64,000 bases of DNA from an uncultured Gemmataceae bacterium (GTDB lineage Bacteria > Planctomycetota > Planctomycetia > Gemmatales > Gemmataceae). Below, one piece after another: positions 36,689-52,235 of the stretch. The translations under genes and the position numbers were made by a program. The stretch spans positions 233,420-297,419 of the forward strand of contig CAVVPN010000010.1 in the NCBI GenBank assembly GCA_963750165.1. The letters are read 5' to 3'. The first letter of the stretch is position 1. Each line of letters opens with the position of its first letter. Below the pieces are notes generated by a model. That model was given only the letters and a program-made list of their open reading frames with translations, was not told where the DNA came from and searched no databases.

Positions 36689-36985
36689 ATGGCCAGAACC
36701 CGACGTACCTACACCCCGGAGTTCAAGCTCGAGGCCGTCAAGCTCGTCACTGAGCAGGGCTACTCCGTCGCCGAGGCCGCACGCTCCCTCGGCATCCACG
36801 AGACCCTGCTCCGCTCCTGGAAGCAGGCGCTGGAGGCCAAGGGCGGCCAGGCCTTCCCCGGCCAGGGCAAGCTCTCCCCCTTCGAGGAAGAGAACCGCCG
36901 CCTCCGGGCCGAGAACCAGCGGCTCCTGGCGGAGCGCGACATCCTAAAAAAAGCGACGGCGTTCTTCGCCAGGGAGGCGACATGA
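36689..36985 (+). CDS. IS3 transposase OrfA
   Basis: RRTYTPEFKLEAV...ERDILKKATAFF; slippery AAAAAAAG at 36946-36953. Confidence 0.95.
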   Translation: MARTRRTYTPEFKLEAVKLVTEQGYSVAEAARSLGIHETLLRSWKQALEAKGGQAFPGQGKLSPFEEENRRLRAENQRLLAERDILKKATAFFAREAT

Positions 36986-37836
36986 CCTTCCGCTTCATCG
37001 AGGAACACCGCGGCCAGTGGCCCGTGCGCCTGCTCTGCGAAACCCTGGAGGTCTCGACCGCCGGCTACTACGCCTGGCGCGACCGCCCCGCCAGCGACCG
37101 CGCCCGGCGCCGCGACACCCTCCTCGTGGAAATCCGCGCCATCCACGCCGAGGTCAAGGCCCGCTACGGCAGCCCGCGCATCCACGCCGAGCTGGTCGCC
37201 CGGGGCCAGGACTGCTGCGTCAACACCGTGGCCCGGCTCATGCACGACCACGACCTCCGGGCCAAGACGGCCCGCAAGTTCCGCTGCACGACCGACTCCA
37301 ACCACGACCTGCCCGTGGCCGCGAACCTCCTGGATCGGCAGTTCAACCCCGCCGCGGCCAACGAGGCGTGGGTGGCGGACATCACCTACATCCCGACCCG
37401 GGAGGGTTGGCTGTACCTGGCTGTCGTCGAGGACCTGTACTCGCGGCGGGTGGTGGGCTGGTCGATGGCCGACCACCTGGAGAGCCGGCTGGTCGTCGAT
37501 GCCCTGGAGCTGGCGGTGCAGCGCCGGCTGCCGGGGGAGGGGTTGCTGGCCCACTCCGACCGGGGCAGCCAGTACGCCAGCGACCACTACCAACGCCTCC
37601 TGGGCAAGCACGGCATCACCTGCAGCATGAGCCGCCGGGCCGACTGCTGGGACAATGCCCCGATGGAGAGCTTCTTCGCCTCCTTGAAGAAGGAACTGGT
37701 GCACGACGCCGACTTCGCCACCCGGGCGGAGGCGCGGGCGGCGCTCGTCGAGTACATCGAGGTCTTCTACAACACGCGGCGCCGGCACTCGTCGCTGGGG
37801 TACGTGTCCCCGGCCGAGTATGAACAGTCCGAATAA
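36982..37836 (+). CDS. IS3 transposase OrfB (DDE)
   Basis: YGSPRI, WVADITYI, HSDRGSQY, DNAPMESFF. Confidence 0.95.
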   Translation: MTFRFIEEHRGQWPVRLLCETLEVSTAGYYAWRDRPASDRARRRDTLLVEIRAIHAEVKARYGSPRIHAELVARGQDCCVNTVARLMHDHDLRAKTARKFRCTTDSNHDLPVAANLLDRQFNPAAANEAWVADITYIPTREGWLYLAVVEDLYSRRVVGWSMADHLESRLVVDALELAVQRRLPGEGLLAHSDRGSQYASDHYQRLLGKHGITCSMSRRADCWDNAPMESFFASLKKELVHDADFATRAEARAALVEYIEVFYNTRRRHSSLGYVSPAEYEQSE

Positions 37837-42251: not shown

Positions 42252-42959
42252 ATGAAATCGACCGTCGATGAAATCCGGCAGCGGTTCGACGCCGACGTGG
42301 AACGGTTCTCCAATCTCGAAACCGGCCAGTCGGCCACGGTCGATGCGCCGATGGCGATGGCGCTGGTCGCCCAGGCAGCAGCGGCCACGACACCGCACGC
42401 CCACCATGTTCTCGACGTGGGCTGCGGGGCCGGCAACTACACCCTCAAACTGCTGGAATCCCTGCCAAACCTCGACGCCACCTTGATCGACCTGAGCCAG
42501 CCGATGCTCGACCGGGCCAGGGAGCGGGTCAGCCGAGCGACCGCTGGCTGCATCACGACCATCCAGGGCGACATTCGAGCGATCAACCTTGCTGCCGGGG
42601 AGTTCGACATCGTGCTGGCGGCTGCGGTGCTGCACCACCTACGCACCGATGACGAATGGCGGGCTGTCTTCACAGCGTTCCACCGGGCGCTGCGCCCTGG
42701 CGGCTCGGTGTGGGTCTTCGATCTGGTCGAGAGTTCGATCCCTGCGGTCCAGGAACTCATGCGCCGGCGTTACGGAGAGTACCTGACCCGGCTGAAGGAC
42801 GAAGCCTACCGGGACCATGTGTTCGCCTACGTCGAGAAAGAGGACACGCCCCGACCGCTGCTCTTCCAACTGGAGTTGCTGCGTCAGGTCGGGTTTTCGC
42901 AGGTCGAAGTCCTGCACAAAAACGTCTGCTTCGCCGCCTTCGGCGCTGTCAAAGCCTGA
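42252..42959 (+). CDS. Class I SAM-dependent methyltransferase
   Basis: VLDVGCGAG, VLHHL, LRPGG. Confidence 0.9.
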   Translation: MKSTVDEIRQRFDADVERFSNLETGQSATVDAPMAMALVAQAAAATTPHAHHVLDVGCGAGNYTLKLLESLPNLDATLIDLSQPMLDRARERVSRATAGCITTIQGDIRAINLAAGEFDIVLAAAVLHHLRTDDEWRAVFTAFHRALRPGGSVWVFDLVESSIPAVQELMRRRYGEYLTRLKDEAYRDHVFAYVEKEDTPRPLLFQLELLRQVGFSQVEVLHKNVCFAAFGAVKA

Positions 42960-43026
42960 CGCTCTCATCGCTGCCGAAGGTGCATCCGGCAACATTTCGG
43001 CTGACCTCGAAGCCGAGAAAGATTCA

Positions 43027-43054
43027 TTGACAAGTCGGAAGGTTCCGATATAAT
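43027..43054 (+). promoter_or_regulatory. Consensus sigma70 promoter with a palindromic operator in the spacer
   Basis: TTGACA-16 bp-TATAAT; TCGGAA-GG-TTCCGA at 43035-43048. Confidence 0.85.
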
Positions 43055-43073
43055 CGAGTATCGGAGGCACACG

Positions 43074-43394
43074 ATGACCGCCAAGACGAAAACGCCGCCT
43101 GCCCTCACCGACCTGAAAGCTCTGGAACAGGCGGCGGAATGTCTCAAGACTCTGGCCCACCCGCACCGTCTGCGCATGGTCCAGATGCTCCTGCGAGGCC
43201 GCTACACGGTCGGTGAACTGGCCGAGGCGTGCGGCATCCCCAGCCACATGGCCTCTGAACACCTGCGGCTCATGCAGCGATGCGGCTTCATGACCAGTGA
43301 AAAGGACGGACGCAACGTGTACTACCAAATCGCCGAACCCCACCTGGCGAACATCATGACCTGCATCGAAGCCCGGTTCGGCGGCACGGGCTGA
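43074..43394 (+). CDS. ArsR/SmtB family regulator
   Basis: LKTLAHPHRLRM...TVGELA...SEHLRLM...DGRNVYY; four Cys. Confidence 0.92.
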   Translation: MTAKTKTPPALTDLKALEQAAECLKTLAHPHRLRMVQMLLRGRYTVGELAEACGIPSHMASEHLRLMQRCGFMTSEKDGRNVYYQIAEPHLANIMTCIEARFGGTG

Positions 43395-43480
43395 ATTTTT
43401 TTCGCCTGACGTATCGTAATGTCGGGACATAAACAACAATGAAAGACAATCCCGAACCTGCGACGGGAGGAGGCAGAACG

Positions 43481-43660
43481 ATGGAAGTCCTGATTCCCCT
43501 GGGCGTCCTCCTGATCTGGATCGTCCTGCAAGCCTGGGTGCTGCCACGCCTCGGTGTGAAGACCTGAATGAGCGGAACTTGCGAGCCGAGTTCGGCTCCT
43601 CCCCGTGTCGAGAACCAAAAACCACCAACCGTTTCCGAGGACGAAAGGAGATCGCAGTGA
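43481..43660 (+). CDS. Candidate small membrane selenoprotein (in-frame UGA 43565-43567); otherwise a 28-aa peptide
   Basis: RBS GGAGGAGG; MEVLIPLGVLLIWIVLQAWVLPRLGVKT-UGA-MSGTC...RRSQ*; hairpin 43583-43598; final TGA overlaps the next GTG. Confidence 0.6.
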
Positions 43661-44229
43661 CCGTCACGACCATCAGCCCTCAGCAGCTTGCTGAATTGTG
43701 CAAGGCCGGGAAGATCGAACTCATTGACGTGCGGACGCCGGTGGAGTTCCGGGAGTTGCACACGACTGTTGCCCGCAATGTGCCCCTGGACCGGCTCGAC
43801 CCAGCAGCGATCATGCAGGCCCGCAATGGAAGCAAGGACGAGCCGCTGTACATCATCTGCCGCTCCGGGAGCCGAGGCCAGAAGGCGTGCGAGAAGTTCC
43901 TGGAGGCAGGCTTCTCAAACGTGGTCAACATCGAGGGCGGCACCCTGGCGTGCGTCGAAGCCGGCCTGCCGGTCGTCCGTGGCAAGAAGGCCATTTCGCT
44001 GGAGCGGCAAGTGCGGATTGCGGCGGGATCGCTCGTGCTGCTGGGCGTGCTGCTCGGCTGGTTGGTCCACCCGGCCTTCCTCGGACTGTCCGCCTTCATC
44101 GGGGCCGGGTTGGTGTTCGCCGGCATCACGGATACCTGCGGCATGGGGATGATGCTGGCCCGGATGCCCTGGAACCAGGTCAAGGATGCCTCGACCGGCT
44201 GTTGTGCGACGAAGGAGGTCTGCTCATGA
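43657..44229 (+). CDS. Rhodanese + DUF2892 (YgaP-like) membrane sulfurtransferase
   Basis: IDVRTPVEF, ICRSGSR, SLERQVRIAAG, GLVFAGITDTCGM; GTG start with RBS AAGGAG. Confidence 0.9.
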   Translation: MTVTTISPQQLAELCKAGKIELIDVRTPVEFRELHTTVARNVPLDRLDPAAIMQARNGSKDEPLYIICRSGSRGQKACEKFLEAGFSNVVNIEGGTLACVEAGLPVVRGKKAISLERQVRIAAGSLVLLGVLLGWLVHPAFLGLSAFIGAGLVFAGITDTCGMGMMLARMPWNQVKDASTGCCATKEVCS

Positions 44230-45887
44230 AACTGCTCATCGTCGGTGGCGTGGCCGGGGGCGCATCGGCAGCCGCCCGTGCCCGCCGCCTCTCGGAAGAC
44301 GCCCACATCATCCTGTTCGAGCGGGGGCCGGACGTGTCGTTCGCCAACTGCGGCCTGCCGTACTACCTGGGCGGCGAGATCGCCGAGCGGGACAAACTGC
44401 TCGTCGTCACGCCGGATCGGCTGCGGACCCGCTTCAACCTCGACGTGCGGGTGCGGACCTCGGTGGAACGAATCGACCGGGCGGCAAAGAAGGTCCATGC
44501 CCGTGACCTCGCTTCGGGCCGGGAGTACGACGAAACCTACGACAAGCTGATCCTCGCCCCAGGAGCGGCACCGCTGCGCCCGCCGCTGCCCGGCATCGAC
44601 CTGCCCGGCATCTTCACCCTGCGAAACTTACAAGACGTGGACCGCATCAAGGGCAGGATGGACCAGGGCGTGAAGCAGGCCGTTGTCATCGGAGCGGGCT
44701 TCATCGGCCTGGAACTGGTCGAGAACTTCGTGGGCCGGGGCATTGCAACCACGGTGGTCGAGTTGCAGGACCAGGTGTTGCCGCCGTTCGACAAGGAGAT
44801 GACGACGCCCCTCGCCCAGGAGTTGGCGAGCAAGGGCGTGGCGCTGCTGCTCGGCCAATCCGCCGAGTCGTTTGAGTCGGCCCCCGATGGCTTGGTCGTC
44901 CGCCTGAAGTCGGGCCAACGGCTTCCGGCCCAACTGGTCGTCCTCGGAGTCGGCGTGCGCCCGGAGAACAAGCTGGCCGTCGAGGCGGGCCTGGAGGTCG
45001 GCCCCCGTGGCGGCATTCGGGTCAACGAACAACTTCAGACCAGCGACCCGGACATTTATGCAGTCGGTGACGCCATCGAGATCAAGGACTTCGTGACGGG
45101 CGACTCGACGCAGGTGCCGCTGGCGGGTCCGGCGAACCGCCAGGGCCGCATCGCCGCCGACAACATTTTTGGACGGTCGGCCCGCTACCGAGGAACCCAG
45201 GGCACGGCCATCGTCCGGGTCTTCGACAAGACGGCGGCGATGACCGGCGCTTCGGAGAAGGTGTTGAAGCGGTCGAAGCGCTCCTACCGCAAGGTCTACG
45301 TTCACCCGACGCAGCACGCCGGCTACTATCCCGGTGCCGAGGCAATGACCCTGAAGTTGCTCTTCGACCCGGAGACGGGAAAGGTGCTGGGGGCGCAGGC
45401 CGTGGGTGGTGACGGCGTGGACAAGCGGATCGACGTGCTGGCCGTGGCGATCCAGGCGGGCATGACGGTCTTCGACCTGGAGGAGATGGAACTGGCCTAC
45501 TCGCCGCAGTACGGCTCGGCCAAAGACCCGATCAACATGGCGGGCTTCGTGGCGGGCGGGCTGCTCCGAGGCGACCATCCTCAAGTGGATGTCGAGGCGG
45601 TCCTGGCCGCTCCTGCCGGCGAAGCCCCGTACCTCGTGGACGTGCGGACGCCGCAGGAGTATGCAGACGGGCACATCCCCGGAGCCGTCAATCTCTCGGT
45701 GGACGACCTGCGGCCCCGGCTGGGCGAACTGCCCCGTGACCGCCAGATCGCTGTGTACTGTCAGGTAGGGCAGCGGGGCTACCTGGCGACTCGCATCTTG
45801 AAGCAGGCCGGGTTCCAGACGGCGAACGTCGGCGGCGGATACAAAACCTACCGGCTGCTGCACCCGACATCGAACGGGGTCCGGTGA
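44226..45887 (+). CDS. CoA-disulfide/persulfide reductase with rhodanese domain (CoADR-RHD/Npsr)
   Basis: GGVAGG, SFANCGLPY, GAGFIG, AYSPQYGSAKDP, YCQVGQRG. Confidence 0.93.
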   Translation: MKLLIVGGVAGGASAAARARRLSEDAHIILFERGPDVSFANCGLPYYLGGEIAERDKLLVVTPDRLRTRFNLDVRVRTSVERIDRAAKKVHARDLASGREYDETYDKLILAPGAAPLRPPLPGIDLPGIFTLRNLQDVDRIKGRMDQGVKQAVVIGAGFIGLELVENFVGRGIATTVVELQDQVLPPFDKEMTTPLAQELASKGVALLLGQSAESFESAPDGLVVRLKSGQRLPAQLVVLGVGVRPENKLAVEAGLEVGPRGGIRVNEQLQTSDPDIYAVGDAIEIKDFVTGDSTQVPLAGPANRQGRIAADNIFGRSARYRGTQGTAIVRVFDKTAAMTGASEKVLKRSKRSYRKVYVHPTQHAGYYPGAEAMTLKLLFDPETGKVLGAQAVGGDGVDKRIDVLAVAIQAGMTVFDLEEMELAYSPQYGSAKDPINMAGFVAGGLLRGDHPQVDVEAVLAAPAGEAPYLVDVRTPQEYADGHIPGAVNLSVDDLRPRLGELPRDRQIAVYCQVGQRGYLATRILKQAGFQTANVGGGYKTYRLLHPTSNGVR

Positions 45888-45931
45888 GCGGGGAATCTCG
45901 TCGGAGGCAGCCGGGTATCAGAGGAACGACC

Positions 45932-46546
45932 TTGCGCTTCTACTCCGACGTGATCTTCCCTCGACTTTGCGACCTCCTCCTGAACAGGCCGCTGGTGGCA
46001 CGGCACCGGCGACAACTGCTCGCCACGGTCTGCGGCGACGTTCTGGAGGTCGGCTTCGGGACGGGCCTGAACCTGCCGCACTATCCCGCCCAGGTCCGCA
46101 GGATCACCACGGTCGATCCGAACGCCGGGATGCAACGGCTGGCACAACAGCGTGTCAGAAGGTCCAAGATCGAAGTTGACCAGCGTGTTCTCAACGGTGA
46201 ACGTCTCCCCTTCGAGTCTGACCACTTCGATTGCGCCGTCAGCACGTTTACCCTGTGCAGCATTGAGGACGTGGGCCAAGCCTTGAGCGAAGTGTACCGG
46301 GTACTAAAACCGGGAGGTCGCTTCCTGTTCCTGGAGCATGGCCTCAGCCCGGAGCCGAAGGTCCAGAAGTGGCAGCGCCGGCTGAACTGGCTGGAAAGGT
46401 GCCTGGCTGATGGCTGTCGCCTGGACCGCAACATGAAGGAACTGGTCGCCGCCCAGCCCTTCTCGTCCGTGGAAGTCGAAGAATTCTACCTGGAAAGAAC
46501 GCCGAGAACGCACGGCTACCTCTACCGGGGCGTTGCCGTCAAATGA
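45932..46546 (+). CDS. Class I SAM-dependent methyltransferase
   Basis: LEVGFGTGLN, FTLCSI, LKPGG, LEHG; TTG start with RBS. Confidence 0.88.
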   Translation: MRFYSDVIFPRLCDLLLNRPLVARHRRQLLATVCGDVLEVGFGTGLNLPHYPAQVRRITTVDPNAGMQRLAQQRVRRSKIEVDQRVLNGERLPFESDHFDCAVSTFTLCSIEDVGQALSEVYRVLKPGGRFLFLEHGLSPEPKVQKWQRRLNWLERCLADGCRLDRNMKELVAAQPFSSVEVEEFYLERTPRTHGYLYRGVAVK

Positions 46547-46914
46547 GCATGTCGGCCTTGCCGCTGATCCAAGTCGGCACCGATCACCTGCTGCCGGACC
46601 AAGAGCCGCTGGGGCGAACGCAATCTGGCTGTACAACCAGACCAAATGCGTGAGCCTACTACCGCCTGTTTTTTTCTGAGTTCTCTTCCTTTTCTCTTCG
46701 GTCAGGTGTATGATTCTGATAACCTTCAACTACATTTCACTGACTTCCAAATCACAACACATTACTGCCAGGAATTCCGGGTTGCGAGCAAAAGGACGTT
46801 GCCCCGGCAATGATGCCGAAAACGGAACAATCCTCCGAATGCCTACACGGAGATTCAATAAGTGGCAATGTCGTTGATCTTTGAAAAGTCACGGTCGAAA
46901 AGTCTTTGGGCTTA

Positions 46915-48063
46915 TTACCACGGCATGAAAGTTGCTCAAAAGTCCGTTGGGAGAATAACCGCGACACTCCGAGACGGAGACTGCTCATGTCCATCCAGTT
47001 ACCTGACGCCCGCCAGTTGTCGGATGAAGCCCTCCAGGTGCTGCGTCTGCGCGCCTTACGGGGGATCGAGTTGGGCTACTCCGAGTTGGATCTCGCCGAA
47101 CTCCTGGGCGTCTGCCACGAAACCATCAGTCGCTGGTGGACGGCCTACGTCGCCGACGGCCTGTCTGCCCTGCCCGGCGGTCGCAGCGGCCGGCCGCTCG
47201 GTTCCGGGCGCTACTTGTCCGACCCGCAGGCCGAGCGCATCCGGGCGTGCATCGACCTGCACTCCCCGGAGGAAGTGGGCATCCCGCACGCCTTGTGGAC
47301 GCGCCGCGCCGTGCGCGACCTGATCCGCCAGGAGTTCGGCATCGACCTGGCCGAGCGCACCGTCGGCGCGTACTTGCGCCGCTGGGGTTACACCTCCAAG
47401 AAACCGAGCCGGCACGCGCGGCAGCAGGATCCCGACGCGGTCGAGGAGTGGTTGCTGGAAACCTACCCCGCCATCGAAGCCCAGGCTGAGCGCGAGCAGG
47501 CGGAAATTCTGTGGACCGATGAGGTCGGCGTGGCGGCCGATCACCACCCCGGTTACGGCTACGCCCGCCTCGGAGCACGCGCGACGATGGAGGTGCCTAA
47601 GCCCCACCTCCGGGTCAACCAGATTTCGGCCATCAGCAACGAGGGGACGGTACGGTTCATGACTTACCAGGGCGCGCTCGACGCGGCGGTGTTCCTGATG
47701 TTCTTGACCAAGCTGATCGCAGGGGCGACGCGGAAGATGCTGCTGATCGCGGATCGGCTGCAAGCCCACAAGACGCCGGCGGTACAGGCCTGGGTGGAGG
47801 CGCACCGGGACCAGATCGAGGTGTTTTATCTGCCGGCGTATTCGCCGGAGTTGAACCCAGTGGAGTATTTGAACAACGACATGAAGGGTACGGTGAACGA
47901 GGCGGGCCTGCCGCCCGACCGGCCGACGTTGCAGGGCCGGTTGTTGGACTTCATGAAACGCTTGGTTCGGGTGCCGGATCATGTGATAAGTTACTTTCTA
48001 CATCCGTGGACTCGGTACGCTGCCCCGGTAGAATTGATTTGATCTTATTTCGTGCCGGGGTAA
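46915..48063 (+). mobile_element. IS630 family insertion sequence
   Basis: IRs TTACCACGGCATGAAA / TTTCGTGCCGGGGTAA; TA duplication at 46913-46914 and 48064-48065. Confidence 0.92.
46987..48042 (+). CDS. IS630 transposase
   Basis: WTDE, DRLQAH, LPAYSPELNPVE. Confidence 0.93.
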   Translation: MSIQLPDARQLSDEALQVLRLRALRGIELGYSELDLAELLGVCHETISRWWTAYVADGLSALPGGRSGRPLGSGRYLSDPQAERIRACIDLHSPEEVGIPHALWTRRAVRDLIRQEFGIDLAERTVGAYLRRWGYTSKKPSRHARQQDPDAVEEWLLETYPAIEAQAEREQAEILWTDEVGVAADHHPGYGYARLGARATMEVPKPHLRVNQISAISNEGTVRFMTYQGALDAAVFLMFLTKLIAGATRKMLLIADRLQAHKTPAVQAWVEAHRDQIEVFYLPAYSPELNPVEYLNNDMKGTVNEAGLPPDRPTLQGRLLDFMKRLVRVPDHVISYFLHPWTRYAAPVELI

Positions 48064-49373: not shown

Positions 49374-49919
49374 TCAGCCTCCTTCGAGCGCCTGCTCCCA
49401 CCCGACCACTTCGTTGCCGAAATTCTCGTGCAAACTGGTCAGCCCTCGTTCCTTCTCGACCTGCGAGAAACGACCCGTCACGTCGGCATCGTCAGCCTCG
49501 CTCATCACCCGTTCGGCCATGTGGAAGAGGACGTTGTTCTCCTTGAAGATGTGCTGGCGTAGCAAGGGGATATACTGCCGGGCAGCGTCAACAAAGGTTT
49601 GGGCGTCGAACGGCTGCGCCTGGCTCGCCTCACGCATCCGGCCCACGCAGTCCCGGCCCAGGACATGCTCGTGAAGCATGACGCCAATCGGCCCGCCCTG
49701 TTCGGGGATGCCTCGTTTCTTGAGGACAGGGAAGAACACGTCCTCTTCCTTGGCATGGTGGCACTGGTCGGCAAACTGCTGGAAGAACCGGGCTGCCCAC
49801 TCCGAGAAACCAGCAGGGAGGGACTGTCCCGCTTCGAGACATGCCACGGCTTTTTCGAGCAGGCTCAGGCCACGTTCGATCAGGTCGTGTTCGGTTTTCA
49901 GACGCTCGACGGCTTTCAT
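49374..49919 (-). CDS. Hemerythrin domain protein
   Basis: EHDLI, HHAKEE, MLHEH, HIFKENNVLF. Confidence 0.9.
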   Translation of the reverse strand: MKAVERLKTEHDLIERGLSLLEKAVACLEAGQSLPAGFSEWAARFFQQFADQCHHAKEEDVFFPVLKKRGIPEQGGPIGVMLHEHVLGRDCVGRMREASQAQPFDAQTFVDAARQYIPLLRQHIFKENNVLFHMAERVMSEADDADVTGRFSQVEKERGLTSLHENFGNEVVGWEQALEGG

Positions 49920-49970
49920 GACGACCTCTTTGATTCACGTCAGCCTCTCGGCTGTGCGTAGGACGCCTTC

Positions 49971-52235
49971 TCACGGAACCGCATCCAGTTCTTTCCTTGG
50001 CACAACAGGCTCATTCTCCCCCGTTCGGATCGAATGGCCTGTCTTCAGCCCAGCCACGAACCACACCAGGGCGACGGCTCCCAGGGCGAAGATGGTGTCG
50101 CCAGGTACACGCAGCCAGCGAAGAGTCTGCATGACCTCGGTGTGCATAAACTCTGGACTGCGAGCGTACCAGTAGCCTTTTTCGACCGAAGCCCAGGTCT
50201 GCATCAACCCGACCGGCAAGAGGCTGATGACGCACATCGCCATCAGGCCGATGTTCATGGACCAAAATGCGAACTTGAGAGTTCCTTCTTTCCACACGAG
50301 GCCCGGCAGAAGCGCCCGCAGGCACATGAGCATCAGGCCGATTCCCAGCATCCCGTAGACGCCGAAGAGGGCGGCATGGGCGTGTACTGGAGTCGTGTTC
50401 AAGCCTTGCATGTAGTAGAGGGCAATCGGCGGGTTAATCATGAAGCCGAACAACCCGGCCCCGACCATGTTCCAGAAGGCCACGGCCACGAAGAAGTAGA
50501 TCGGCCACTTGTACTTCTGGACCCAGGGGGTCGCTTTCGACATGCGCAGGTCTTCCAGGGCGGGATAGGCGACCAGAATCAGCGGCACGACCTCCAGGGC
50601 GCTGAACACCGATCCCCAGGCCAGCGCCACCGTGGGAGTCCCCGCAAAATACAGATGGTGCAGCGTGCCGATGATGCCGCCCGCCAGGAAGATCGTGGCC
50701 GACAGCAAGGAAGCCTGGGCAGCCAAACGAGGCGTGACCAGGTTGAGCCGGTAGAAGAAGAAAGCGATTACCGTGGTCGCAAAGACCTCGAAGAACCCTT
50801 CCACCCACAGGTGAATCACCCACCAGCGCCAGTATTCCACAATCGACAGATGGGTGTGCTGGCCCCAGGTGAGGCCGGCACCGTAGAACAGGCCAATGGC
50901 GGTCGAGGCCATCAAGAAAATCAGGAGCAAGTGCCGCTGTTCGCCGGACTTCTTCAAGGCCGGAACGACCACTCGCACGACCAGCGCCAACCAGAGCAGC
51001 AGGCCGACGAAGAGGCCGATCTGCCAGACCCGGCCCAGGTCGATGTACTCGTAGCCCTGGTGTCCGAAGTAGAAGGAGGCGCTCGGCGAGAGTTGGTTCT
51101 GGATGCTCAACCACTGACCGGCCATCGACCCGACCACGACCACCAGCAGGGCCACGAACAGGATGTTGACGCCGAGCCGCTGGCCGGCTGGTTCCGACCC
51201 GCTGACCAGCGGCCCAATGAACAGCCCAGCGGCGAGCCACGCCGTCGCAATCCAAAGCACGCCGAGTTGAAGGTGCCACGTCCGAGTCACGCTGTAGGGA
51301 AGCCATTTCGAGAGAGGAATGCCATAAAAGCCGTCGCCCTCGACCCCGTAATGAGCGGTGACGACGCCGAGCAGGATTTGCACGAGGATCATTGCCGCCA
51401 CGACCCAAAAATACTTGACCGTGGCTAGCTGTGACGGCGTGGCCTTCCAGCCAACGATGGGATCGGCTTCGGGAACCGGCCCCGTGGGGCGTTCCTGCGT
51501 TTGCGAGGCGTACCACCAAACCATCGCTCCGATCCCGGCGAGCAGCATGATGACGCTCACGCCGGTCCAGACCACGGCCTCGCCGGTCGGGCGATTGCTG
51601 ACCAGCGGCTCATGCGGCCAGTTGCTCGTGTAGGAAAGGTCGGCCCCAGGGCGGTTGGTGGACGCCGCCCAGGAGGTCCAGAAGAAGAAAGCGGCCAACT
51701 GGCGCAGCTTGTCCGGGTCGCTCTGCGCTCCTTTGGGGATGGCATAGTTCGTGTTGCCGTTGCCGAACACGTCGGCGTAGTGCCGCAGGTTCGACTCGAA
51801 CGCCCTGGCTCGCACCGGGTCCACGGTGATCGTATGCTTGGCGGGATCGAACGTGTTCGTGCGCATCAGGCGTTCAAGACGCTTCTGAAGTTGGGCTTGC
51901 TGTTCTGGCTCGATCTGGTCGTATTCCTTCCGGTAGGTCGCCGTGGCCCAATCGTTGAGGATGAACACGCATTCCCGGTGCAGCCAGTCCGCCGACCAGT
52001 CCGGTGCGACGTAGCTGCCGTGGCCCCAAATCGACCCAACCTCCATGCCGCCCATCGCCTGCCAGACGTTCTGCCCTTTCCCGATGTCGCCGCCTGGGAT
52101 GACCACCTGGCCGTCCGTGGCGACGACTTGATCCGGGATCGGCGGCTGTTCCTGGTAGATGCGGGTGCCGACCCAGCCAAGAACGGAGAAGGAAGCCAGG
52201 ACCACGATGCCAAAGGCCAGCCAGAGTTTCTTCAT
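49971..52235 (-). CDS. norB: Quinol-dependent nitric oxide reductase (qNOR)
   Basis: WGHGSYVAPDW, WWVIHLWVEGFFEVF, GTLHHLYF, HAHAALFGVY. Confidence 0.95.
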   Translation of the reverse strand: MKKLWLAFGIVVLASFSVLGWVGTRIYQEQPPIPDQVVATDGQVVIPGGDIGKGQNVWQAMGGMEVGSIWGHGSYVAPDWSADWLHRECVFILNDWATATYRKEYDQIEPEQQAQLQKRLERLMRTNTFDPAKHTITVDPVRARAFESNLRHYADVFGNGNTNYAIPKGAQSDPDKLRQLAAFFFWTSWAASTNRPGADLSYTSNWPHEPLVSNRPTGEAVVWTGVSVIMLLAGIGAMVWWYASQTQERPTGPVPEADPIVGWKATPSQLATVKYFWVVAAMILVQILLGVVTAHYGVEGDGFYGIPLSKWLPYSVTRTWHLQLGVLWIATAWLAAGLFIGPLVSGSEPAGQRLGVNILFVALLVVVVGSMAGQWLSIQNQLSPSASFYFGHQGYEYIDLGRVWQIGLFVGLLLWLALVVRVVVPALKKSGEQRHLLLIFLMASTAIGLFYGAGLTWGQHTHLSIVEYWRWWVIHLWVEGFFEVFATTVIAFFFYRLNLVTPRLAAQASLLSATIFLAGGIIGTLHHLYFAGTPTVALAWGSVFSALEVVPLILVAYPALEDLRMSKATPWVQKYKWPIYFFVAVAFWNMVGAGLFGFMINPPIALYYMQGLNTTPVHAHAALFGVYGMLGIGLMLMCLRALLPGLVWKEGTLKFAFWSMNIGLMAMCVISLLPVGLMQTWASVEKGYWYARSPEFMHTEVMQTLRWLRVPGDTIFALGAVALVWFVAGLKTGHSIRTGENEPVVPRKELDAVP

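Follow-up and report, generated by a model that had tools for sequence, protein, structure and literature searches.

The stretch of DNA analysed here, to which we refer as the window, is 64,000 nt long and comes from an uncultured Gemmataceae bacterium (GCA_963750165.1, contig CAVVPN010000010.1, positions 233,420-297,419, forward strand). In it a small gene sits between an ArsR repressor gene and a run of overlapping genes that encode a rhodanese-YgaP fusion, a CoADR-RHD reductase and a methyltransferase. The features of the locus are the following.

43027..43054, plus strand: sigma70-type promoter of arsR, perfect TTGACA-16-TATAAT, overlapped by an operator-like inverted repeat (43032-43051)
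43074..43394, plus strand: ArsR/SmtB-family repressor gene (NF033788 match above cut-off)
43374-43397: terminator-like site, ahead of the inverted repeat 43411-43430
43411..43430, no strand: inverted repeat of the ATATC-N10-GATAT type that resembles an operator, 70 nt ahead of the small gene
43466..43473, plus strand: ribosome-binding site GGAGGAGG, 7 nt ahead of ATG 43481
43481..43660, plus strand: gene of a predicted small membrane selenoprotein, 59 aa with UGA read as Sec
43565..43567, plus strand: in-frame UGA, predicted Sec; a Cys codon in homologues of selA-less genomes
43580..43582, plus strand: Cys codon of the U-x4-C motif, +5 from the UGA, conserved in the family
43583..43598, plus strand: SECIS-type hairpin, loop 43589-43592, G at loop position 2
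43657..44229, plus strand: fusion of rhodanese and YgaP-like membrane domain (PF00581, PF11127), active-site Cys motif present
44226..45887, plus strand: CoADR-RHD/CoAPR-type CoA-disulfide/persulfide reductase with C-terminal rhodanese domain (PF07992, PF02852, PF00581)
45884..46546, plus strand: class I SAM-dependent methyltransferase (PF08241), which ends the run of overlapping genes

The frame of the small gene opens with ATG 43481 and runs through 28 sense codons to TGA 43565-43567; 30 more codons lead to a second TGA at 43658-43660. A preliminary description of this DNA had reported the ribosome-binding site, the start codon, a 28-codon transmembrane segment and the in-frame UGA, and the sequence bears out each of them. 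The product is predicted to consist of a helix at about residues 2-25, Sec29, Cys34 and then a low-complexity tail. The closing TGA shares the letters GTGA with the GTG start of the rhodanese gene at 43657. This overlap had been put forward as translational coupling. The overlap is there, but the rhodanese gene has a Shine-Dalgarno-like sequence of its own and need not depend on coupling. For this reason, and because in many related loci the next gene downstream is convergent, we set aside the idea of a coupling to the rhodanese gene that depends on selenium. Both catalytic Cys motifs, that of the rhodanese-YgaP fusion and that of the reductase, are present in the translations, and by these and by its domains the operon resembles the cst-like ones. 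The best NCBIfam match of the reductase is TIGR03385, below the cut-off of that model.

Several features lie around the operon. About 3 kb downstream, on the minus strand (49374-52235), there is a quinol-type nitric oxide reductase with NorB domains, then a hemerythrin-domain gene and a cupin; together with the operon this stretch may possibly belong to a larger island of redox-stress genes. The region lies between two insertion sequences, one at 46906-48042 with DDE_3 and HTH_33 domains and the other at 36689-37836, which we take from its translated frames to be IS3-like. Outside the window, the same contig carries an array of 16 tRNA genes (C10 88560-90125); arrays of this sort occur on mobile elements. 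The host also has a decayed second copy of the operon (C1:481043-481280, L128), in which a premature TGA replaces a Trp codon in the helix of the small gene and the reductase is fragmented. Transposase-like frames are found upstream.

A protein family with an in-frame UGA

The small gene belongs to a family with a simple layout: one N-terminal membrane helix, the motif PxxG(V/I)xT-[U/C]-Mxxx-C and a variable tail. Among the species genomes of GTDB, a scan gave 599 candidate stretches, of which at least 212 were confirmed, and 80 were kept (81 rows with the window). By title, the 80 fall into ten phyla: Acidobacteriota (40), Planctomycetota (19), Myxococcota (6), Thermodesulfobacteriota (4), Chloroflexota (3) and others. 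Among the matches listed, TGA stands at the site in every one of the 81 rows (first homologues and window) and TAA or TAG in none, while the terminal stops of the same frames are 43 TGA, 22 TAA and 16 TAG. A wider set of 111 rows has 110 TGA and one TGC; in the set drawn from the host's class the site holds only TGA, TGC/TGT or TGG.

Reading continues beyond the UGA as if it were coding. In 174 distinct UGA rows the codons from +1 to +15 are free of any stop, Cys stands at +5 in 161, the P, G and T ahead of the UGA are 98-99% conserved, and Ser at +2 is encoded by all six of its codons. The other two frames meet a stop within 12 codons of the UGA in 38 and 28 of 108 rows. Conservation in the family is strongest on the membrane-proximal W-x-L-P-x-x-G-V-x-T face. 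The check asked of homologues was whether they keep UGA or Cys together with a downstream M-x-x-x-C. The homologues read at the DNA level have no TAA or TAG at the site, and the residues after the UGA are conserved.

Protein searches extend the family to 1,111 matches at 90% clustering and 1,489 at 50% clustering. Among 254 proteins read, the site is Cys in 175, Trp in 19 and another residue in 12; 46 end there and two could not be parsed. The Trp entries are probably the work of gene callers that read UGA as Trp. Cys is found at +5 in 169 of 176 Cys-form proteins, and many of these forms have an extra Cys in the tail; in DNA, a TGC or TGT codon was read at the site in 23 rows. Met directly follows the Cys in 142 of 176 uninterrupted Cys-form proteins; the ATG behind the UGA therefore encodes a conserved residue rather than a new start. 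Members are annotated as hypothetical or uncharacterised, among them a Cys form from a cultured organism, Gimesia alba (QDT43003.1, hypothetical); one truncated form is labelled DUF606. One Planctomycetota cluster in a protein atlas, at 0.88, serves as a lead only.

Some members depart from the common form. A U-AVP subgroup from Myxococcota and Acidobacteriota (L068, L077, L082, L083, L091, L092) has no Cys at +5, and its Cys equivalents occur among the protein matches (P0212, P0252). A single 208-residue record, P0228, runs from a Cys form in frame into a thioredoxin domain, being either a fusion or an assembly error. Two matches that suggested longer forms look like overextended start sites. 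A search of plasmids gave no match to the family.

The stem-loop at 43583-43598 was also part of the preliminary description and is confirmed. It has a 6-bp stem and an AGUU loop that starts 21 nt after the UGA, with a folding energy of -10.6 kcal/mol. In the model for bacterial SECIS elements the loop has 3-9 nt, lies 16-37 nt downstream of the UGA and has a G in its first two positions (PMC13188914). Judged by the window alone, the hairpin does not reach significance (z -1.0 to -1.9). An Rfam scan of the region (42900-44300) gave no match to a SECIS family. The free RNA favours a rival pairing, with a closing-pair probability of 0.10 for the hairpin; this becomes 0.97 once at least 6 nt after the UGA are masked, which mimics a ribosome at the UGA.

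It is the family that lifts UGA and hairpin above chance. We used a strict test (at least five contiguous pairs, a loop of 3-5 nt, 16-27 nt from the UGA), which is our own implementation of the published constraints and not bSECISearch. It replaced a first, permissive test (101/108) that passed a Cys gene too. The strict hairpin is found in 99 of 108 distinct UGA rows, against a mean of 14.8 after synonymous recoding (maximum 23 in 200), 7.5 after shuffling, 9 of 83 terminal stops and 333 of 3488 TGA stops of long host ORFs. Hence the signal exceeds chance in both parts: all 81 rows have TGA at the site, compared with 43 of the 81 terminal stops, and the hairpin, present in 99 of 108 rows, is found in at most 23 after recoding. 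In most rows the loop lies 17-24 nt from the UGA. Within classes there are stems with changes on both sides, the classes having been picked for having stems. In the class set, from which four misregistered UGA rows were excluded, the hairpin is present in 65 of 72 UGA rows and in 2 of 23 rows with Cys. One of these two, G378, is a nearly identical copy of the UGA gene in G502 and still has the hairpin, which looks like a recent change from Sec to Cys.

Selenocysteine machinery and Cys forms

If the UGA is read as Sec, the gene should be found where the machinery is. The host genome has selA, selB and selD, each above cut-off, a tRNA-Sec of 71.6 bits, and a gene like that of formate dehydrogenase alpha, which has both an in-frame UGA and a hairpin. 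A second tRNA-Sec that ARAGORN predicts on C11 was rejected: it pairs poorly and is not in the Rfam list.

Two samples of 301 genomes each were searched. In that of the host's phylum 40 genomes matched and 32 were read, eight weak matches (E above 0.002) being left out. The reading gave 30 UGA genes, one Cys gene and one false match (G175, on the opposite strand of another gene). All 30 UGA genomes have selA (29) or selB (the remaining one), whereas the Cys gene is in a closed genome, G300, without selA or selB. The baseline for selA in this phylum is 226 of 301. Sec is thus used by most of its genomes, and further small selenoproteins may have been overlooked likewise.

The sample of the host's class was searched with a profile of the Cys form, and all 93 matching genomes were read: 71 have a UGA copy, 20 only Cys, one has Trp with a premature stop, and one (G500) was dropped as doubtful. 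There selA occurs in 67 of 71 UGA genomes versus 1 of 20 Cys-only genomes (Fisher p 9e-15, which kinship overstates); selA or selB is found in 68 of 71 UGA genomes, the selB test having covered two of the 20 Cys-only ones. One of the selA-less UGA genomes, G573, has selB and selD. In three others, G411, G366 and G374, a search for selA, selB and selD that covered all but 24 kb of G411 found none. The G366 copy is decayed, with most of the helix and the second Cys lost; the G411 copy has no hairpin; the G374 copy looks largely intact, and its close gene relatives show Cys (G378) or Trp and a stop (G336). Beyond the phylum, the genomes of 50 of the 61 loci not titled Planctomycetota were searched, and 47 have selA; it was not found in the other three UGA genomes, which may be incomplete. 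There are related genomes among the samples, hence these counts overstate independence. A gene tree of 43 columns needs eight Sec/Cys changes, of which its well-supported branches force only one. The distribution of sel genes in the host and in UGA genomes had been named earlier as a check. UGA does track the Sec machinery, and Cys forms are found in selA-less genomes.

Several stages of Sec loss can be seen side by side in one set of related copies, L131 (G378), L171 (G374), L208 (G336), L227 (G366) and L152 (G502). The states among them are UGA with selA, UGA where the machinery is lacking, Cys beside a remnant of the hairpin, Trp together with a premature stop, and loss of the helix by deletion. 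A selA-positive genome, G418, has a Cys and a UGA copy (L158, L186) about 10 kb apart on one contig.

Topology, neighbours and regulation

AlphaFold2 models a Cys member as one helix (residues 2-25, pLDDT above 90) with a tail of low confidence (about 60; pTM 0.38). Hydropathy likewise points to a single membrane helix. Lys and Arg average 0.2 before the helix versus 3.6 after it (153 rows), and 97% of the rows fit an orientation with the N-terminus out and the C-terminus in, to which the positive-inside rule points. The U-x4-C pair would therefore sit at the cytoplasmic face. The available text on YgaP places its rhodanese domain on the cytoplasmic side (PMC4730233), i.e. at the same face. 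A complex predicted for a Cys form with a YgaP-type membrane dimer scored 0.02 and counts neither for nor against contact.

For the neighbourhood, 66 upstream and 63 downstream neighbours were scanned with Pfam; local profiles were built from them and counted within 1.6 kb. Around 125 UGA loci we find rhodanese, YgaP-type and ArsR genes (28 each), DUF302 (27), CoADR/SQR-like (17), thioredoxin-like (13), DsrE (6), RND (6), TauE (4), metallo-beta-lactamase (4) and YeeE (2). At least one of eight sulfur-transfer marker families lies within this distance at 64 of 125 UGA loci and 11 of 14 Cys loci versus 3 of 700 random host tiles, a contrast that is an upper bound because the profiles derive from the same loci and the loci include close kin. 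DUF302, which itself has no assigned function, was counted as a sulfur marker on an association that we assume. Gene order varies widely, and the sulfur-transfer theme persists across loci. The link to rhodanese, YgaP-type and CoA-persulfide-reductase genes, proposed from the window, thus holds across the family but for only about half of the UGA loci: 61 of 125 have none of the eight families within 1.6 kb, and the top single family reaches 28. In ten Acidobacteriota loci, mostly titled Vicinamibacterales, the small gene comes after DUF302 and faces a convergent hemerythrin-domain gene (L024, L028, L029, L031, L032, L035, L040, L042, L058, L062).

A repeat of the ATATC-N10-GATAT type occurs in the window both at the arsR promoter (43032-43051) and ahead of the small gene (43411-43430). 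Where the ArsR gene is co-directional, 9 of 12 loci have an inverted repeat ahead of the small gene, compared with 3 of 14 where it is divergent and 4 of 113 others; shuffles give 0.4. In 9 of 12 loci of the window's clade the repeat is 39-82 nt upstream. Since the repeat is found both near the small gene and over the arsR promoter, the small gene is probably the first gene of an ArsR-repressed unit. The two repeats may be the operator of a subgroup of ArsR proteins that have four Cys but not the BigR/SqrR pair. We take the ArsR here to have a Cys in its last helix and to lack the helix-2 Cys of BigR/SqrR. In an alignment it fills only the C-terminal Cys position of that pair, and it scores 50.7 bits with the BigR model NF040642, the cut-off of which is 155. 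SqrR/BigR sensing, in the available text of PMC9774590, relies on two conserved Cys (Cys41 and Cys107 in SqrR). Contigs of relatives at 80% likeness span arsR, the small gene and the rhodanese gene; as they come from other strains and contigs cannot show transcription, they are left out of the evidence. RNA runs account for small shares.

Possible function and comparison with known systems

The UGA at 43565-43567 is very likely recoded as Sec, to judge from the evidence described above. This agrees with the preliminary description, which had proposed a membrane selenoprotein with U-x4-C. It had also named three findings that would count against this: TAA or TAG at the site, no conservation beyond the UGA, and UGA forms common in genomes without Sec machinery. 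All three came out in its favour. What the protein does is a more speculative matter. The explanation that we prefer, with somewhat better than even confidence, is a 59-residue single-pass membrane selenoprotein whose U-x4-C forms an anchored redox relay for the sulfur of persulfides or polysulfides. For the relay role as such, which we read from motif and neighbourhood, we would put the chances just above even.

Such a relay might work as follows. SelB would read the hairpin and insert Sec. With the N-terminus outside, Sec and Cys would lie just within the cytoplasmic face. The selenolate could then attack a sulfane sulfur, either of membrane-dissolved polysulfide or of a persulfide on the rhodanese/YgaP protein, and Cys+5 would resolve the adduct to give a selenenyl-sulfide. 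Re-reduction would fall to CoA and the CoADR-RHD reductase or, in other loci, to thioredoxin; in Enterococcus, according to the available part of PMC9405070, CoADR-RHD reduces CoA persulfide. ArsR would control the unit through the repeat 43411-43430, and Cys forms would do the same chemistry without selenium. Besides the UGA genomes in which no Sec machinery was found and the UGA loci with no marker neighbour, further observations count against this explanation: U-x4-C differs from the thioredoxin-type spacing, the ArsR lacks the BigR/SqrR Cys pair, and the U-AVP subgroup lacks Cys+5.

Other suggestions can be made. Instead of being a catalyst or carrier, the protein could attend a membrane protein (a YgaP-type DUF2892 protein, an RND pump, YeeE or TauE) as a small accessory subunit with a redox switch, much as AcrZ does with AcrB. 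The highest conservation, on the face next to the membrane, is what a binding surface would show, and in several loci an RND gene, a stand-alone YgaP-type gene, DUF302 and the small gene form a run, with YeeE or TauE flanking in others. We consider this unlikely, as there is no constant membrane partner (YgaP-type in 28 of 125 loci and RND in 6 of 125 within 1.6 kb) and many loci have thioredoxin only or no marker neighbour. Somewhat less likely still, the Sec and Cys could form a site at the membrane that binds Hg, Cu, As or other soft metals and metalloids as part of an ArsR- or MerR-type response. ArsR is a neighbour in 28 of 125 loci, the 66 upstream neighbours include MerR twice and an ArsP permease once, the extra tail Cys of many Cys forms would suit, and the available rows of a 2026 review table list metal-binding and MerT-like families among small selenoproteins. 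Against these observations, mer/ars core enzymes do not recur among the scanned neighbours, where rhodanese, YgaP-type, DUF302, CoADR/SQR-like, DsrE, TauE, YeeE and metallo-beta-lactamase predominate.

Very unlikely, in our opinion, is a sort of miniature SELENOK/SELENOS: a membrane relay that thioredoxin feeds and that serves thiol-disulfide or peroxide chemistry in general, with no special tie to sulfane sulfur. About half of the loci have no sulfur markers and 13 of 125 have a thioredoxin, TlpA or peroxiredoxin-type neighbour, and SELENOS is described, in the accessible part of PMC10298544, as a disordered membrane reductase and peroxidase; yet sulfur-transfer genes are enriched far over background, also at 11 of 14 Cys loci. 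Least probable of all, and already largely refuted, is that translation does end at the UGA and yields a membrane peptide of 28 residues, with the next ATG restarting a short peptide or the hairpin serving otherwise: ATG directly follows the UGA in 75 of 108 rows, 46 of 254 database forms end at the site with 29 residues and three UGA genomes lack Sec machinery, but Met stands behind Cys in most uninterrupted forms as well, 32 of 108 UGA rows have no start codon after the UGA, TAA/TAG is never at the site and the UGA/Cys state follows selA.

Returning to the persulfide relay, we conclude that the family is real and widespread, that it is very probably undescribed, and that a role in reactive-sulfur handling is likely. 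A wider claim would be that this is one of the more widespread unrecognised families of bacterial selenoproteins, to judge from its size (1,489 clusters at 50% identity) and from its spread over at least ten phyla and 93 of the 301 genomes sampled in the host's class. It would provide the minimal, membrane-anchored Sec-Cys catalyst missing from persulfide-clearance operons, match SELENOK/SELENOS in architecture and tie selenium supply to sulfide tolerance. We hold this claim at a little short of even.

Gene callers cut the protein at the UGA or miss the gene, and a widespread selenoprotein is thereby filed as hypothetical peptides of 29 residues. No match was found in NCBIfam 20.0, which holds recent selenoprotein models, for 81 UGA-form or 81 Cys-form members, nor in Pfam for the window protein or the 81 Cys-form members. 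The best E-values, 0.002-0.3, are to unrelated membrane families, and no member reaches a relevant HMM of TsoB, UXX-star, KCU-star, MerT-like, YeeE and other modelled selenoprotein families. Literature searches on the family returned nothing. It is not described in the available parts of a 2026 review with its family table, the new families of deep-Sep, BSepDB and a 2026 preprint on SECIS features; Haft and Tolstoy 2025, Deng 2026, Table S2 of BSepDB and the figure and supplements of the preprint could list it.

With known bacterial selenoproteins the family shares an in-frame UGA, a bSECIS-type hairpin, Cys homologues and restriction to Sec-utilising genomes (PMC13188914). None of those in the accessible rows of the 2026 review table is a single-helix membrane protein of 50-70 residues with PxxGVxT-U-x4-C. 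If our interpretation is correct, one helix with a juxtamembrane U-x4-C and no folded domain would be a new architecture in the bacterial selenoproteome. TsoB (NF045694, UxxxxU; rhodanese/DsbD fusion-like), compared by its table row, has the same five-residue chalcogen spacing and a link to rhodanese. It is, however, a fusion with a rhodanese domain, which the small family does not have, and NF045694 is not among the matches of the family. SELENOK and SELENOS are also small membrane selenoproteins, and a single helix with a disordered soluble tail is what the model predicts here too. This is analogy and not homology, and a Pfam search gave no match of the family to either. In the accessible part of PMC10298544, SELENOS is disordered and acts as a reductase and peroxidase in vitro, and SELENOK is a 10 kDa cofactor of another enzyme. 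The Sec of SELENOK is in the C-terminal region, whereas here it is residue 29 of 59, about four residues past the helix, with the Cys five further on.

The closest likeness in gene content is to persulfide-clearance operons of the cst type, with a sensor, sulfurtransferases and a CoA-persulfide reductase (PMC9405070, available part), and to E. coli YgaP (PMC4730233, available part). With the former the locus shares a repressor, a rhodanese and CoADR-RHD in one unit, and with the latter a rhodanese fused to a YgaP-type membrane domain. The accessible text of these two sources mentions no selenoprotein or small membrane partner. The cst-like operons use CstR, while the repressor here is an ArsR without the BigR/SqrR Cys pair. 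If the relay is real, persulfide-clearance operons would gain a membrane-anchored selenium component. At about 60 residues, and with natural Sec and Cys versions, it would be an unusually simple system in which to ask what selenium gains over sulfur in sulfane-sulfur chemistry.
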